Below are positions 1 through 8,577 of a stretch of DNA of 64,000 bases, piece after piece. The notes beneath the pieces were generated by a model, which saw nothing but the letters and a program-made list of their open reading frames with translations, was not told the origin of the DNA and searched no databases. Origin of the DNA: a virus (taxonomy: Duplodnaviria; Caudoviricetes); IMG/VR virus record IMGVR_UViG_3300031994_000022. One strand, given 5' to 3'. How positions within the stretch are numbered: position 1 is the stretch's first letter; every line of letters starts with the position of its first letter. Both the position numbers and the translations under genes were made by a program.

Positions 1-1688
1 CTCAATTTTATTGTGCTTTGAATACTCAAGCAACATTTTGTCAAGCTTATCAGTTAGCTCATCCGTAGAGAGATCGAAGTAATTCTCTCGCTTTGATAAC
101 TCGACAAATTCCTTGGTTTCTCGAATATTCTTCCAATCCTCTGACTGAAGAATTTCCTTCTTTGCTGGTTCGGACTCGTACTTTGCAAGTTTTTCCTCAA
201 TAGCAGAGTAGCTAGTTTTCATCTGTTCAAGAGCATTCTTCTCATCAGCAGATAAGAACGAAACAAATGTTTCAATTCTATCACCCTTAAGTGAATATAC
301 ATCTTTCTTTACAGAATAAGACTGACGATAGTGCTTATTATTCCACCAATCGTGGAATTCAACTATCTTAGTTTCTTCAATAACATCACAATCATACCAT
401 GCACCATCAGACTCACCGTAAGTATCATTTACAAGAATTGTAAGAGCATTCAGCTTTTCCTTGAGTGATACTGAATAATCTTTCTTTGCACCCTTAACAG
501 ACACAGTATAATTTACGGAATAGTAATTAACATCTTCTGGATCTTCGGTATTATCATCAGGTTCATCAGGTTGTTCTTCTTCCTCAGATTGTACTTCAGG
601 AGTATCGTCTTTATCATCAGGATTCTCATCATCGTCCTGATTTTCCTTGTCATCATCATCCTTGTCGCCATCCTCATCGTCATCGTCTTGATCCTCATCG
701 TCAACAATTACCGAATCATCATCTTCAGACTTCTTACGCTTTTTCGGACTATCTTCAAAGTTTTCTGTAGAAGGAGTGAAATGCTCTGCAAATACTGCTT
801 CGAGTTCCTCATCTGAAAGTCCTTCGTACTCAAAATCAATTTCATCAATTGACTTTCCATATTGTTCTAAAAGCTTTTCAAACATTGGTTTTGGATTACC
901 TCCTTCCTCTAGAATTTCGTTGTTTATATTAAGGTTATCTATTTTCTCGTTAAGAGCAGATAACATCTCAATAACTTTTTCATTCTGTGAGAATATACTA
1001 TTATTCTCGACACTAAAGTCGGCAATTGAAATATTGCTTCCAACCATACCAGGCTTTACTTCTTCGCCTGTGTAACGATTCTCTTCAAGTATTGTGACTC
1101 CACTAAATCTAAACTTGTCTATACACAATACTTTCTCTTTAGAGTCATAAGATAATTCATCTACAAATAACTCTACACTCACAGACAATCTCTTTTCTCT
1201 TTCTATAATTTCTGCTGCTTTACTGTATGTTTTCCAAATAATACCAGTACCGTCAACATAAGTCTTATCCATATCTACATCATATACTAATTTAAGATCG
1301 GCTGATTCCGGTATACAGCCAACTGGGATTTCCTCATATACGGTTTCACCATCATCATTAACATACAACTCATGACTAGCAAAAACATCTTTCTCACCAT
1401 TGTTATATATATATCCTAAGATTGGCATATTATACGCAGTAGGCAAAGCATTCTCCATAGCCTTTTCAGATATAAAACTTTGGTTGGCATTTTTCTCTGT
1501 GTGACAAAGTCTGATAGGACAATACATATTCAATTCATCATCTTCAGACTGATCATATGTAAACGGTTCATCTATATGAACTACAATGGTAGTGTCATTA
1601 TCAGCAGAACTGAATTTTACATTCTTATTCTGAGTTACATAATAATTATATAAATCAGAGAGATATAAGAGTTTTTTCACTTCTCCAT
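1..1688 (-). CDS. Prohead protease/scaffold-type head protein (SPbeta YonD-like), runs off the left edge
   Basis: Not in the ORF track because it has no stop in the window. Manual translation from ATG 1688 (RBS GAAAGGAGG) gives MEKVKKLLYLSDLY...CHTEKNANQSFIS...SVSVELFVDEL...FSGVTIL...PGM, then an Asp/Glu-rich linker; open to position 1. Lies downstream of the portal. Confidence 0.75.
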
Positions 1689-1699
1689 ATTCCTCCTTT

Positions 1700-3530
1700 C
1701 TTTAAAAATAACAAAACGCAGAGCAGACCTTTTACAATCTACTCTGCAACCGTAATCAATACGGTTCTCTCCTTATATGTGCCTCCATTGGACACTTCAT
1801 TGAGAGGTGTGGAGGCTTCTGTCAAAATGACCCGACGTGGTACGCATCAAAGTGAGAGGCGTGTCGGGTTCTGTCCAATATAAAAGGAGCTGTGTGTACC
1901 AGCTCCAATTCCTCGCAATATTGGCAGTAATTACAGTTTACTGCCGATAATTCCTTAGCGAGTCTCGGCGTTTTTCTTTTCAGATATCTGCATCCTAGTC
2001 AGGGTAAGACTGCCGCAGCTTACGGTAGAACCTCCACGTAAGAACCTGACAAACCTTACGCTTCAACGGTTAAACTTAACTAGTGAGTAATATTCTAACC
2101 GTTACTCGCGGTACGAAAATGTCACGAAAACTATATACTATTCGTGACACAATCTCAGCTCCTCCTACCAATAGGATAGGTGAGTAAGTAGATAATGCGT
2201 AGTCCCGGTGTTAACACATAACACTTACCACGACGGAGGCAGGATACTACGACTTACAATATCTGTCAGAGCGTACTCCACATGGAAGTCTGACAATCCC
2301 ATGCTTCACAGCAGATCCGCCAATACCCAAGGGCGAAGAGTAGTTTAAGTGCTTAACTCAGGCACAAACATTTTCAAACCGACCTTTTATATTGCGGTAA
2401 TCGGTCTCCGCATGGGTTCTGTTTATTTTGCAACTTTCATTTGATGGCTTATGGTAAGTTGCCACCTTTATACATCTCCACATTCACCGCATACCATCAC
2501 GGATTCCGCTTCATAGACATCTACACTTAGGCGGTGAACACCATGTATTGGCTCTGTTCTCGCTCCACTCTTGTGTCTTTACCACAGATTTAAAGTCTAC
2601 ACCTACGCTACTGACTACCAATATTTTGAATCGCTAGAAGTTTTAAGTCGTCCTAAAGACCATATGGTTATCCGATATTGCAGTGTTTTACAGATTCGTC
2701 ATCCAACCATATGAACACCTCTGGAAACGTGCCTCCTCGGAATAGGGCTACACCAGTACCATTACGCACCTACGTGTTTAGGTCTTTTCGTTGACCAAAT
2801 ATTAAAGCGACTCGGCGCGGATCTTCACCGCCATCGTGCTAGTTATAGGGAATTCGCCTCGGTTACCAACCTTAACGCCGCTTATAATAATCCACTTTTT
2901 ATTTGGAAGCGATGGGACACTTCGTTTGAATCACTAGGAGTTTTAGGTCATCCTAAAGACCGCTCGTAATGGGTTTAATGTCTCCATACCGACAAAAAGA
3001 ACGGCATTGATGCTGGCATCGCTACCGCTGAAAAACCTTTGGCTTTTCGTTCATAATCCACCGTTGTAGCATAGGTCGTGGGACACCTACCGCACCGTTC
3101 TTGGAATTTCTTTGTTGTGGGAGTTACCCACTTCATTATTTTTCCTCACACTTCGCCGCCACACTAAATGACTATAAAGGTTCTCACTTGAATTTTAAGG
3201 TGGACGAGATATTCCACCAGTAGAGTTATTGCGCATTACGGTAACTTCGCTTACCTCGGTACTGTCGGTTAAGGGAGCCGACTCCTATTGGATAGCTGAC
3301 AACATATCACCTATTGCCGAGCTTTCATGGTATATTTAACGCCCCCCACTAGGGAAAGAGGTGCTATCCGTTGTCCTCTTATATTTTACTGCCCTATCAA
3401 AACCATCATAGGACTCTTCACCCGGTCAATTTTTATTTTACCGACGAGTCAGAACCGTCACTCGTCATCTTCGCTCGGTCAGTTTTTATATTACCGACGA
3501 GTCAGAACCGTCACTCGTCTCATCTATTAT
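1700..3530 (-). ncRNA. Large structured non-coding RNA region: array of pseudoknot/hairpin modules
   Basis: ~1.8 kb with no credible ORF, visibly more GC-rich than the flanks, dense in stems, with duplicated modules carrying pairing-preserving substitutions. Strand inferred from G-U pairs and operon direction. Confidence 0.85.
3423..3519 (-). repeat. 53-nt-period tandem repeat (about 2 copies, plus a degenerate third at ~3380-3415)
   Basis: CCGACGAGTCAGAACCGTCACTCGTC at 3441 and 3494, each preceded by CGGTCA(A/G)TTTTTAT(T/A)TTA. Confidence 0.95.
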
Positions 3531-3584
3531 GGAATTATTTTTTGTTTTATTTGGTTGATTTGGATCATTTGCGTAATACCATTT

Positions 3585-3612
3585 AAAAAAGACGACAAAT
3601 TAACGTCGTCTT
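3585..3612 (-). terminator. Intrinsic terminator-like hairpin after the portal gene
   Basis: Minus strand AAGACGAC-gttaattt-GTCGTCTT followed by a T run. Confidence 0.65.
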
Positions 3613-3638
3613 AAAAATATTGTTTTATTATCTAAAAG

Positions 3639-5195
3639 TTATCCTTCGCTCCTTGCCCTAGAACGTTCACCTGAATCAGATAAATCTCCTTCATCTACTT
3701 GTGGTCTTCCTTGTCCAATTTCAGAAGTATATCCATCTTCAGTACCACTTTGGGTATAAGATGAATTTAGAGGACGAAGTTTATCACTAAGACCTAATAA
3801 TTCTTCTTCTACATAATTCATACAGATAGTGTCTTTTTCACTAAATCCATTAAGAGTATTGATAGCTAACTTAGTTGGTAATCCATACTGACCAGACGAA
3901 AGTAGCTGTTCTCTATAGTCTGACTTTGTATATGTTGAAATTGGCATAAAACGTACTTTGCAGTCATCGGCACCCTCATAACTAAGCATCCTCATTACCC
4001 AAGATTGTATTTGTGGTAGAAGAGAAGAGATGGCAAATTCTGTGTTGGCAATGGTAGCCATCTTAAATGCATAAGTATTATTGATGGTAGCACCATTAAG
4101 TATTTCAGCACCACCAGCCGTATTTAGTACTTGCTCTGTAGCTTTAGCAACTTTAGTAGTATCAGTTGCTTTATCATCACCAAAGCTTATTTCATGCAAT
4201 TGTCCAGGAACAATGGCAGTAGCTATATAATCCGGAATACTATCATTAAGCTTATCAAAATATGGTAATGAAAGATCCGGGTCGATTTTCCAATCGTCTA
4301 TTCGCTTCGATCCGGTTATGGTTTCTAATTCGTACCACAGAAGCTTGTATACGCTCGCAGCATCCCCCGCTGCTTGAATGTCCTCAAGGTCTGCAAGATT
4401 TATAATACTATTAAATATACCGCTCCAGGGACTGACTATTACATCCAAATCTTCAATTCTAAACTTCATACAAACTTGATACTTAGAATCTATCAGTTGC
4501 CACTTTTCACCAGTGCTTTGATAATTTTTCCAAACATCTTCAAATACTTCTGGTATATATTCAATAAGTTCTTGTCTATTTCTTAGCCATGAGGCATCAA
4601 AAAAATAAGACAGATCACCTGTCATAAATTTTCCAGCTATCTTACAATAATCAGCTGGTAATTGCATATGAAATACCCCAGTATCATCATGAATATAGAT
4701 ACCATAATAAATATCTTGAACAAAACAAGTAAATATTATTGGATAAAATTCCTGCTGTAATCTCATTATTGAAACTGCATCAAGAGTATTTTGATAAGAT
4801 TTCATTATCTTATCAGCATTATTTTCTTTGACTAAATCATATTTAGGAATAATGCTTCGACAATCTAAACAAAACATTTCACTAAAGAAATGAACAATCC
4901 TATAAAATACATGAGACCTATACAGAAGGTACCAGGCTAACGCTCGCAAATTCTTTTCTTGAGATCCGATATTTTGTAAATATTGTCTTAATCTTTCTTT
5001 ATCAAAAGTAGTAATTGTTTTATTATAAGTCTTACCAATATCTCTTAATTGTTTAAGCATCTTATCTTTATTTTCAGTAGCAAAATTTGTAACCATATCT
5101 AAACGGTCTTTATTTTTGCTATACCAATCTTTTATTTCAGCCACTGTCGGCTGTTTAGGTGCATTCGACACCTGTGTAGTCTTTGTTCGTGCCAA
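3639..5195 (-). CDS. Phage portal protein (YonE-like)
   Basis: 518 aa, TTG start with AAGGAGG RBS, directly after the large terminase; portal-like C-terminus PLNSSYTQSG...GRP. Confidence 0.8.
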   Translation of the reverse strand: MARTKTTQVSNAPKQPTVAEIKDWYSKNKDRLDMVTNFATENKDKMLKQLRDIGKTYNKTITTFDKERLRQYLQNIGSQEKNLRALAWYLLYRSHVFYRIVHFFSEMFCLDCRSIIPKYDLVKENNADKIMKSYQNTLDAVSIMRLQQEFYPIIFTCFVQDIYYGIYIHDDTGVFHMQLPADYCKIAGKFMTGDLSYFFDASWLRNRQELIEYIPEVFEDVWKNYQSTGEKWQLIDSKYQVCMKFRIEDLDVIVSPWSGIFNSIINLADLEDIQAAGDAASVYKLLWYELETITGSKRIDDWKIDPDLSLPYFDKLNDSIPDYIATAIVPGQLHEISFGDDKATDTTKVAKATEQVLNTAGGAEILNGATINNTYAFKMATIANTEFAISSLLPQIQSWVMRMLSYEGADDCKVRFMPISTYTKSDYREQLLSSGQYGLPTKLAINTLNGFSEKDTICMNYVEEELLGLSDKLRPLNSSYTQSGTEDGYTSEIGQGRPQVDEGDLSDSGERSRARSEG

Positions 5196-5207
5196 GTCGC
5201 ACCTCCT

Positions 5208-7253
5208 TTATCTGCCCACTATTTTTGCTGGGCGAATTGTTAATTTATCTAAAAGATAATTTGAAGATACTTTTGGCTTCTGAAGAAGCAACTTACGTCT
5301 TTCCTCAGCCAATGCGTGTCCAAGCATACAACAAGTATAGGCACGGTCGTCATGCATTTTATTAGCTTTTTCTGGGGTTAACTCAAAAGAGTCCTTACCG
5401 GATTCCCTTTTCTTTCTCACCATATTAACCAATTCTTCTTTCAAAGCATCGATATTTGCTAAAGCAATTTTATCTTTCCAATCCAACTTTATAGTTTTAG
5501 TATTAACCGATTGTACCTTACCTAATTCTTCTTGTAATTTATCTTCAAATTCTTTTTCATTTAGTTTTTTCTTTTTTAATTCTTCAATTATTCTTCCACG
5601 TTCTTTGTCTAATTTCTTCTGGTCAATATCAAATACAGTAAGATATTCTTTATTATCATATGTACTTGTGAAACCAATCTTATCTTGATTAAGCATTTCT
5701 ATTAGTGCTTCATACATCATCGATTTAAATTTAGCCGGTTCCATAAGATGAACCTTGTCCACCGCATTTGGGAATCTACCAACATAATCAGCAGAGTATT
5801 CTTTATCTATTAATCCTCTATGAATAATACCATCAGAAGTTTCCCAATCTGGCATCAAGTAATCGGCTATGTTCACACCGCCTCCTCCCGTACCAGCATC
5901 AATCCAAATACCGACAATATTTTCATATGCATCAGCACCAGCGTTGTAATCAAGAATCATTTGTTTTAAATATTCAATCTGATCAGGCGTTCTCATAGGA
6001 CTCTTGATTCGTTTACCGACATCCAAAAGATTAACACCATTAACAATCTTTGCTCTTTTATCAATGCTTCCATCTACTTGTATAAAATCATAAAACTCAG
6101 CCACAAGTATAAATGAGTTATCCACCTTACGAGCAGGGTCATAAAATAACCCATATTTCTTATCACCAGTTTCATTACAATGAATTGGCTTTCGAGTTTC
6201 CTCATTACGAGTAATAACACCACGTTTTACAATGGCATCCGAACCAGCTTCTGTTGTAAATTGACAGTAATACTCGCGCCTCGCCTTTTCTGGATTTGTT
6301 CTCATTTCAGATTCGACAGTAGAGCGAGAGAGTAGTGGAGCAATAACTTCACCATGTAATGTCGGTTTGAATGCGAGTTCACAATCAATGTGAAGAACAC
6401 AATAATCTGGGTCTCCCATAATCTGACGTTTAGCAAAATCTCTATATAAAGAATAAAACTTTGTATCAGTAGAAGATGCACTACTAATATAAAACTTTTG
6501 GTTTGGTATATCTGTGGCAAACGTTCTTTGTCTAATAGGGTCAATAGAACGACCACTTGCATCTTTACCAGTCTTTAAGCTTTTATTTACAATAGCAAAC
6601 GCCGAATATACATTCATCATTTCTTCCGATAAAAAACCGCTTTCATCGAAGATTACGTTTCCTCTCATTCCTCTCTTTTTATCTATATTACTGTTGAGCG
6701 TCTGAGTCATCGACCCATTATAGACTTCGTAATTGAATCCATTAGAAGAATGACTAAAACCATCGCCAGCTGCATTTTTGATTTTTATTTCATCTTTAAA
6801 TATTTTTCCTGTAGAACCTGCAAAGGTATCTATGTTATCATTTGCAATACGTTCGAGCGTTGTGAAAGTTTGTTCTGCCTGAGAACCAGATCCTGAAGCA
6901 ATATATGTCCAATAATTACAGAAACACATGTCCTTCATCATGGTTTCTAAATCTATAACTGTTGATTTTCCCCAACCTCGAGTCGCAACGATTAATACAT
7001 TTGGACAATTCCATGAACGCTGTACTGCTAAAGCTTGAGAATCCAAAAGTTCAATATTAAACCAAAAATCTATACCAGCTACGGGATTACATTGAAAATA
7101 TTTCTGCATCATCGCAATAGCCTGTAACGCTTCAATTTTTCTCGTAGACATAGGATAATCAATTGGCTTTACAAATATTCCATAATCTTTATAGAAATCT
7201 TTATCATATTGCAAATCATAATCAAAACTATTCGGTGTCCATATCTGACTCAT
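5208..7253 (-). CDS. Terminase large subunit (YonF-like)
   Basis: Walker A ATRGWGKST, Walker B IFDESGF, motif III ISSAS, nuclease acidic motifs YDPAR, IDAGTGGGG and HDDRAY. Confidence 0.92.
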   Translation of the reverse strand: MSQIWTPNSFDYDLQYDKDFYKDYGIFVKPIDYPMSTRKIEALQAIAMMQKYFQCNPVAGIDFWFNIELLDSQALAVQRSWNCPNVLIVATRGWGKSTVIDLETMMKDMCFCNYWTYIASGSGSQAEQTFTTLERIANDNIDTFAGSTGKIFKDEIKIKNAAGDGFSHSSNGFNYEVYNGSMTQTLNSNIDKKRGMRGNVIFDESGFLSEEMMNVYSAFAIVNKSLKTGKDASGRSIDPIRQRTFATDIPNQKFYISSASSTDTKFYSLYRDFAKRQIMGDPDYCVLHIDCELAFKPTLHGEVIAPLLSRSTVESEMRTNPEKARREYYCQFTTEAGSDAIVKRGVITRNEETRKPIHCNETGDKKYGLFYDPARKVDNSFILVAEFYDFIQVDGSIDKRAKIVNGVNLLDVGKRIKSPMRTPDQIEYLKQMILDYNAGADAYENIVGIWIDAGTGGGGVNIADYLMPDWETSDGIIHRGLIDKEYSADYVGRFPNAVDKVHLMEPAKFKSMMYEALIEMLNQDKIGFTSTYDNKEYLTVFDIDQKKLDKERGRIIEELKKKKLNEKEFEDKLQEELGKVQSVNTKTIKLDWKDKIALANIDALKEELVNMVRKKRESGKDSFELTPEKANKMHDDRAYTCCMLGHALAEERRKLLLQKPKVSSNYLLDKLTIRPAKIVGR

Positions 7254-8577
7254 CTACAGACACCTCCTCTTCTTCAGCAGAGAAAGGAGAGTAAAGTTCT
7301 TTTAAATTATGAAGATTAGTCGTAATATCAATATCTTGCTCCCCTAAATAATCTTTAAGATCAAGATTTTCTCTTAACAATAATCTATTTATTTCTTTAA
7401 AAGCATCTCTTTCTTTTCGTAATGTTTGATTATCAACTCTCATAGTCGCAACAATGTCTGCCCATTCAGATTCATCCAATGCTAATTGTTTCATAATAGA
7501 AGCATCAGATATTTCTTGGACTTGTTGCATACCCCGACATGTGGCAATATCAAAACCATTCACTTGTCCTTCTCGAAGATTTAAATCTTTAATTTTCTGA
7601 ATTTTACCAGTCCAAGTATTTTCACCCTTAATAGAATTCTTGCTATTTTTGAGAGAGATACAGTTTTCGCTTGCAAGTTTAGTAACGCTTAAAGTAATAT
7701 TCTTTTTCATTTCTTGAAGAGCTTTAACTGTAGATATATTTTTTTCTGCATTTCTAGTGTCTTGAACTAAATCTGCAATCATATCATCTATCTGATTTAT
7801 CTGTAGAAAGTTACGAACAATACTGATGATAGATGAAGTTCTCATCATATCATCATTACCATTTTCATCAGAATCCAAGAATCCAATAAGCTGAGAATAT
7901 AAAAATGGTTGGTCGGCTAACTTTTCCTTTTCAAAAGGAAGATAACCAAGCAACCTCAACGTATCATTTTTATTCTTTTCAAATTGGTCGAGTATCTCTT
8001 GATCTTTCGGAAGAGCATCCTCAGCCATATCTTCAATGCTAAACATTCCTCCCGTATAATTATCTGACTGTCTATAAGTCAAAGTGTAATACTGAGGCAT
8101 AGCCGCATTTTTAATATAACTCGTCCACACATTAGATTTTGCTTTGCCCGTAGATTGATTAGCGGCTTCAAGCAAAGAAGAATCCCATATGGAATCTAAC
8201 ATTGGTTTGTCGAGAAAATAACAAGCATCATCCACAGTTTTCTTTGTGGGTTGTTGCTTTTTTCCATTCACCGTCGGCATAGCAATGTCGGCAGCACATT
8301 GCTTGCAACCGTCCGTTATTTGACTCGCACAGTTAGGAGCAGTAGAAGAGTAGAAATCGCTTTTCTTCTTAACTTTTCCGCAGTGCTGACAAGTATAATA
8401 TTTAGAACCAACTCCAAGTATTTCTAAACATTGTAGTTGGTCTTTATCTTCTAATTTATCAAACAACTTTTGTATTTTATCTATTTGTTCTTTTATATCT
8501 TTAAGCCCGGTAATTTTGTCACTACGAGTATTTGTAGTTGACTTCTGCCCGACTTGTCTCATAGTTTTCGTAGCCAC
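7228..8577 (-). CDS. Zn-binding packaging-associated protein (YonG-like, possible terminase small subunit)
   Basis: 449 aa with CQHC...CKQC; overlaps the terminase start; position matches SPbeta-like gene order. Confidence 0.55.
   Translation of the reverse strand: MATKTMRQVGQKSTTNTRSDKITGLKDIKEQIDKIQKLFDKLEDKDQLQCLEILGVGSKYYTCQHCGKVKKKSDFYSSTAPNCASQITDGCKQCAADIAMPTVNGKKQQPTKKTVDDACYFLDKPMLDSIWDSSLLEAANQSTGKAKSNVWTSYIKNAAMPQYYTLTYRQSDNYTGGMFSIEDMAEDALPKDQEILDQFEKNKNDTLRLLGYLPFEKEKLADQPFLYSQLIGFLDSDENGNDDMMRTSSIISIVRNFLQINQIDDMIADLVQDTRNAEKNISTVKALQEMKKNITLSVTKLASENCISLKNSKNSIKGENTWTGKIQKIKDLNLREGQVNGFDIATCRGMQQVQEISDASIMKQLALDESEWADIVATMRVDNQTLRKERDAFKEINRLLLRENLDLKDYLGEQDIDITTNLHNLKELYSPFSAEEEEVSVDESDMDTE

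Follow-up and report, generated by a model that had tools for sequence, protein, structure and literature searches.

What does a phage gain from an antitoxin RNA when it carries no toxin to neutralise? This question was raised by a short stretch of a virus record (IMG/VR record IMGVR_UViG_3300031994_000022) assembled from a sheep-gut metagenome, a linear genome of 141,835 bp that is 95% complete and has a G+C content of 34.7%. We analysed a window of 64,000 nucleotides, given as the reverse strand of the record. An earlier note, made from the letters of this window, had read a solitary pseudoknot of the CptI antitoxin type here and had not foreseen that the DNA is phage DNA, a context that turns a solitary antitoxin into a candidate decoy.

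Identity of the CptI-like unit

The unit and its parts lie on the minus strand at the following positions.

2374..2418, minus: CptI-like unit of 45 nt, placed by direct reading, match to the published CptI and covariance model R1
2418-2413, minus: 5' tail of the unit, reading AACCCA
2412-2408 (UGCGG), minus: first strand of stem S1, pairing with 2397-2393 (CCGCA)
2406, minus: loop L1, a single G (G13)
2404-2400 (CCGAU), minus: first strand of stem S2, pairing with 2383-2379 (GUCGG)
2392-2384, minus: loop L2, A-rich, 9 nt
2378-2374, minus: 3' tail of the unit, reading UUUGA

From 2412 to 2371, the minus-strand letters and stems read exactly as the earlier note gave them, and the 45-nt CptI repeat of Eubacterium rectale that it had given proved to be the reverse complement of primer CptI-WT (PMC4627078, Table 2). 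Like the E. rectale CptI (PDB 4RMO; PMC4627078), the window unit has a 45-nt register and an H-type pseudoknot with 5-bp S1 and 5-bp S2, a one-base L1 (G13), a 9-nt A-rich L2 with U30, the same loop and S2 letters, A1 and A2, and a UUGA 3' end. The supposed sharing of loop, linker, stem 2 and 3' end was borne out by identity at G13-U19, A27-A33, G35-G40 and U42-A45 and failed at one linker position, where U34 is replaced by A. The unit also differs from CptI at U12, which flanks L1 and is likewise A, and in four of the five S1 pairs, in which both partners are replaced (ACCAC/GUGGU in CptI, UGCGG/CCGCA in the unit) in the compensatory manner that the earlier note proposed. The 5' tail reads AACCCA in the window unit and AAGUUU in CptI, so that positions 3-6 differ and only A1 and A2 are kept, a divergence that the earlier note had not foreseen.

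To search for the unit by model, we used a covariance model (R1) built exclusively from 40 distinct CptN-linked bacterial units. In the window, its single significant match was 2418-2374, covering model positions 1-45 with no indels (25.9 bits, E 3.4e-5), and in the whole 141,835-bp record it found one match, to the same unit (E 7.7e-5). A 21-base core pattern likewise had one occurrence in the window, whereas 100 shuffles yielded none. The unit is thus solitary, as had been proposed, by core pattern in the window and by model in both the window and the whole phage. All 10 pairs of the pseudoknot formed by S1 (positions 7-11 with 22-26) and S2 (15-19 with 36-40) are standard in the window unit. 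In a family alignment of 66 distinct units, 97.7% of the cells of the crystal-structure pseudoknot were paired, and double changes occurred in five pairs, with covariation in both stems; neither the pairing nor the covariation score observed was attained by any of 500 shuffles, and the signal collapsed in slid controls. The nested minimum free energy (MFE) fold of the 61-nt region was not unusual (z -0.98), a value that weighs neither way because a nested fold cannot show a pseudoknot. These findings support the reading of the unit as a solitary CptI-type pseudoknot and identify it, at the level of sequence, as a toxin-less, phage-borne homologue of E. rectale-type CptI. A 41-aa ORF that crosses the unit (2358-2483, minus) was rejected as a gene, as two relatives (L006 and L007) are interrupted by an in-frame stop just before it and have no start codon beyond that stop.

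Because Pfam has no CptN family, we built a CptN HMM from 28 ORFs downstream of the core pattern. Neither CptN (tblastn and the CptN HMM) nor ToxN nor Abi_2 (PF07751) was detected in the 95%-complete phage genome, which agrees with the absence of a CptN gene claimed for the locus; many proteins of this phage are without a known family. A cptIN locus is expected to have a promoter ahead of about two tandem repeats, with a terminator and cptN following within about 200 nt. In contrast to the E. rectale locus, we found a single unit with no promoter, terminator or cptN, and on a phage.

The RNA tract that carries the unit

The unit lies in an RNA tract between structural genes of the phage, with these features.

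1681..3638, minus: ORF-free RNA tract of about 2 kb, with no conserved ORF and mosaic among related phages
3639..5195, minus: portal protein gene, the upstream flank (phrog_2739, E 4e-79)
1..1680, minus: downstream flank gene, running off the window (phrog_3313, E 2e-45)
3589..3612, minus: terminator-like hairpin after the portal gene, opening the tract
3380..3519, minus: tandem repeat of 52-53 nt in about 2.7 copies, of type III antitoxin size (repeat families D1 and D2)
2426..2519, minus: drum-like element, 8 nt upstream of the unit (RF02958, 26.4 bits, below the gathering score of 43)
2338..2365, minus: small pseudoknot (stem-loop, UUAAAC, ACUC) next after the unit, accompanying it in all relatives
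1963..2071, minus: second drum-like element (RF02958, 37.9 bits against a gathering score of 43; E 4.7e-5 within the tract)
1886..1906, minus: terminator-like hairpin within the tract; RNA contig X4 ends just beyond it, at 1862
1830..1868, minus: hairpin resembling abiF RNA (RF03085, 32.1 bits against a gathering score of 37)

Bracketed by terminator-like hairpins, the tract shares its strand with the upstream terminase and portal genes and the downstream phrog_3313 gene, in the head region of the genome. Small knots abound in it: a motif of a stem-loop followed by U(U/A)AAAC occurs 7 times in the 1.96-kb tract, compared with 0.9 per kb in the window. In the pseudoknot next to the unit, the stem changes in a compensatory way from GUGC/GCAC to GUAC/GUAC in two relatives (L002 and L143). 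A 37-nt knot occurs twice, at 2625-2661 and 2925-2961 (minus), exactly 300 nt apart and 89% identical, with stem differences of G-U versus G-C. We also observed that the tandem repeat at 3380-3519 combines a 7-bp stem with a conserved loop and a linker rich in A, with no toxin gene nearby, and that RNA contigs X3 and X4 end before it. The abiF RNA, to which the hairpin at 1830..1868 is similar, is an RNA antitoxin in Clostridioides difficile (PMC12373285).

The earlier note had placed a second CptI-like module at 2062-2107. This segment can be drawn as a pseudoknot, yet it gave no match to the CptI model, and its AACCG..UUGAA end turned out to be the conserved 5' end of the adjoining drum-like element, an end that one relative (L142) keeps without the upstream hairpin. 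We therefore set the second module aside.

In one sheep-gut sample, contigs of the RNA library span 1693-3306 and 1862-3278 at a depth of 11-21, whereas the adjacent portal and terminase genes have a depth of 0-4 in the same RNA sample and depth in the DNA run stays even at about 15. As these contigs come from a single sample, show neither strand nor ends and may include DNA carry-over, the RNA depth is a hint of transcription of the tract and no proof of it. Both termini of contig X4, precisely 1862 and 3278, carry sequencing-adapter sequence and are possibly real RNA ends. In an RNA run of another study (X21), with relatives at 90-95% identity, contigs stop at 2357 and restart at 2520, and the unit is uncovered.

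The window's variant of the unit occurred only in phage-like contigs in the collections searched (L002, L006-L008, L142 and L143), and among the matches listed it was beside a toxin gene in none of these collections. It was absent from 401 sampled Lachnospiraceae genomes, 20 of which carry the canonical type. A window-specific pattern was found in 0 metagenome contigs, and a looser pattern led to four contigs, 0 of them with CptN. Across the window and its six mosaic relatives, positions 1-41 of the unit are invariant and the tail positions 42-45 vary. Around this constant core, the upstream flank has been exchanged in three different ways, other modules of the tract are present or absent among L002, L006, L007 and L008, and identity over the remainder of the tract is 72-96% among relatives. 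The unit and the two knots that follow it form one block, which is conserved together through "ggcggat" in the seven contigs. Megablast of window positions 1-8000 against GenBank phages gave no match, and a BLAST search for the 2-kb tract in three Lachnospiraceae genomes, too insensitive for 45-nt modules, returned nothing.

CptI units in bacteria and in other phages

In bacterial genomes, the core pattern marked at least 120 loci, nearly all of them in Lachnospiraceae among the matches listed. A gene of about 156 aa lies within about 200 nt downstream in 88 of 128 core-bearing loci, and one such protein matches the CptN of PDB 4RMO (E 7e-79), which together indicate that these 88 are true cptIN loci. 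A typical locus consists of a promoter, two repeats that are not identical, a terminator and cptN. In most bacterial cptIN loci (for example L010 5109-5198, L015 and L017), we noticed that the two repeats carry compensatory changes relative to each other in both stems, with ACCAC/GUGGU and a G-C pair in S2 in repeat 1 and ACCGC/GCGGU and an A-U pair in repeat 2; this pairing of repeat types is kept across the cptIN loci of many species. Lachnospiraceae chromosomes also contain toxin-less cptI cassettes of the same RNA family (for example L013 and L025). Unlike the phage unit, which has none of these parts, the bacterial cassettes still have a promoter, tails and terminator of canonical type, as remains of a decayed cptIN locus.

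Furthermore, single toxin-less CptI-like units are present in phage contigs unrelated to the window phage. Three of them (L052, L144 and L145) have another compensatory version of stem 1, GCCGU/ACGGC, and three others (L005, L135 and L139) keep the canonical AAGUUU tail and GUUGA end. In five lineages of phage or prophage contigs (L004/L009, L052/L144/L145, L132, L138 and L140), the unit is inside a tRNA array on the same strand. The unit at 14652-14696 of L004, which corresponds to 6318-6362 of L009, starts at the 3' end of a tRNA-Asn gene and is followed by another tRNA gene. A same-strand tRNA within 400 nt was found at 0 of 104 CptN-linked loci and at 6 of 44 toxin-less ones (Fisher p 5e-4, not corrected for relatedness), and the units in tRNA arrays have no adjacent candidate gene. 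As toxin-less units are associated with phage tRNA arrays, such arrays may be a route by which small anti-defence RNAs are delivered. In L052, a drum-like match (1949-2061, minus) lies just upstream of the unit, both inside the tRNA array.

Complete cptIN loci, with two repeats and CptN, were found on viral, prophage-like contigs of 4.7-74 kb (L129, L130, L131, L134 and L137), indicating that the toxin system also travels on phages or prophages. Two further observations concern elements next to the toxin-less units: drum-like matches below the Rfam threshold adjoin CptI-like units in two unrelated elements (the window phage and L052), and a DUF3800-XI-like match of 28 bits, below threshold, directly follows a toxin-less unit in a 107-kb phage contig (L003 567-594).

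A candidate decoy and the alternatives

A CptI copy without a toxin gene suggests that the phage probably uses the RNA to disarm a bacterial suicide defence. In its specific form, this reading makes the unit an RNA decoy against host CptIN, by analogy with the pseudo-ToxI of phage phiTE, and we regard it as evenly poised between right and wrong. The unit would be transcribed along with the ORF-free tract on the strand of the head genes, and its RNA would fold into the CptI knot and bind host CptN. By replacing the labile host CptI once infection shuts off host transcription, the phage RNA would keep CptN inactive, abortive infection would fail and the phage would benefit. An A-A junction that resembles the canonical CptN cut site is present at the 3' edge of the unit, with a possible one at the 5' edge that is one base off register; if CptN cuts at these junctions, the toxin itself could release the unit.

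The precedent is experimental. Intergenic repeats of phiTE act as mimics of ToxI, and in expanded form they hold ToxN in an inactive state (PMC3475682). Both phages, of about 142 kb, carry between genes a copy of a type III antitoxin RNA of the host and lack the toxin, and in both the proposed mimicry keeps a host RNase toxin inactive. In contrast to the window unit, one unit in a multi-module RNA tract with a putative function, pseudo-ToxI belongs to the 36-nt ToxI family, has 1.5 repeats that expand under selection and has an experimentally demonstrated function. Within the literature searched, no RNA mimic of a type III antitoxin other than pseudo-ToxI was documented and we found no report of a phage-borne CptI mimic; conceptually, the window unit would be an addition to this kind.

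The antitoxicity of CptI requires the single-base L1 (G13) and the 9-nt A-rich L2 with its U30 kink. In the crystal structure, the 5' tail of CptI makes the larger interface with CptN (interface 1), with bases 4 and 6 in hydrophobic pockets, and G44 and the scissile A45 take part in the 3' interface. The selectivity of CptI RNAs is high, and a non-cognate CptN is not neutralised. The window unit has G44 and A45, and position 45 is C or U in close relatives; U45 is also found in some true cptIN loci. Several points raise doubt about a decoy: the protein-contacting 5' tail is changed, 3' tail positions 42 and 45 vary among relatives, and only one unit is present, while wild-type phiTE with its 1.5 repeats is still sensitive to ToxIN (PMC3475682). 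In addition, the place of the tract between head genes suggests late expression. The cptIN system itself is not known to stop any phage, and it gave no protection against the six coliphages tested in E. coli.

A wider version of the decoy reading takes the unit as a single cassette in a phage "RNA counter-defence array", modular and recombining, that would bring together toxin-less CptI, abiF RNA, drum-type RNA and TenpI-sized look-alikes, with the CptI cassette also seeded into the tRNA arrays of unrelated gut phages and possibly released there by tRNA processing. We put this forward tentatively, as a proposal that is rather more likely to be wrong than right. If true, RNA antitoxin mimicry would be a general strategy of gut and rumen phages, and the array would be the first evidence of CptIN as a working anti-phage system. 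That toxin-less copies of CptI are conserved in several unrelated phages of one bacterial group is indirect evidence that CptN threatens phages in native hosts.

The strongest of the alternatives, which we consider unlikely, is that the CptI fold has been exapted as a cis-acting element that stabilises a long non-coding transcript, blocks exonucleases or punctuates its processing, with no dealings with CptN. Room for this explanation comes from what the unit has kept and what it has lost: S1 pairing, S2 and the A-rich L2, which build the fold, are preserved, and the protein-contacting tails are changed or variable. The wealth of other small stem-loop and U(U/A)AAAC knots in the tract is consistent with it as well. 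However, exaptation of the fold leaves unexplained why the loop and L2 letters are identical to those of the bacterial antitoxin across unrelated phages, the toxin-less units with canonical AAGUUU tail and GUUGA end argue against it, and the window unit is located in the middle of the tract, away from transcript ends.

We give little credence to two other explanations, and equally little to each. One is a neutral relic, in which a captured cptIN locus has lost its toxin and is now drifting. In its favour are the prophage-like contigs with full cptIN (L129-131, L134 and L137) and the bacterial toxin-less remnants with promoter and terminator, such as L013. The phage unit, however, has no trace of a canonical promoter, second repeat or terminator, and the four compensatory pair swaps, which require selection for pairing, together with a core that is invariant where the flanks of relatives were exchanged, make drift improbable. 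The other is that the RNA is an antitoxin or regulator of an unrecognised phage protein, such as an RNase unrelated to CptN that is encoded at another place in the genome or within the 5% that is missing. The many proteins without a family in a linear, 95% complete record leave space for such a partner, but there was no CptN, ToxN or Abi_2 signal, true loci have the toxin gene within 200 nt and no candidate gene adjoins the units in tRNA arrays. Chance resemblance, for which the ordinary MFE fold of the region might speak, is effectively refuted by 0 of 100 shuffles holding the pattern, a full-length model match without indels at E 3e-5 and the same variant kept in six other contigs.

Independently of which reading is right, the rewritten stem 1 and altered tails of the window unit provide a natural mutant series for asking what CptN reads in CptI.
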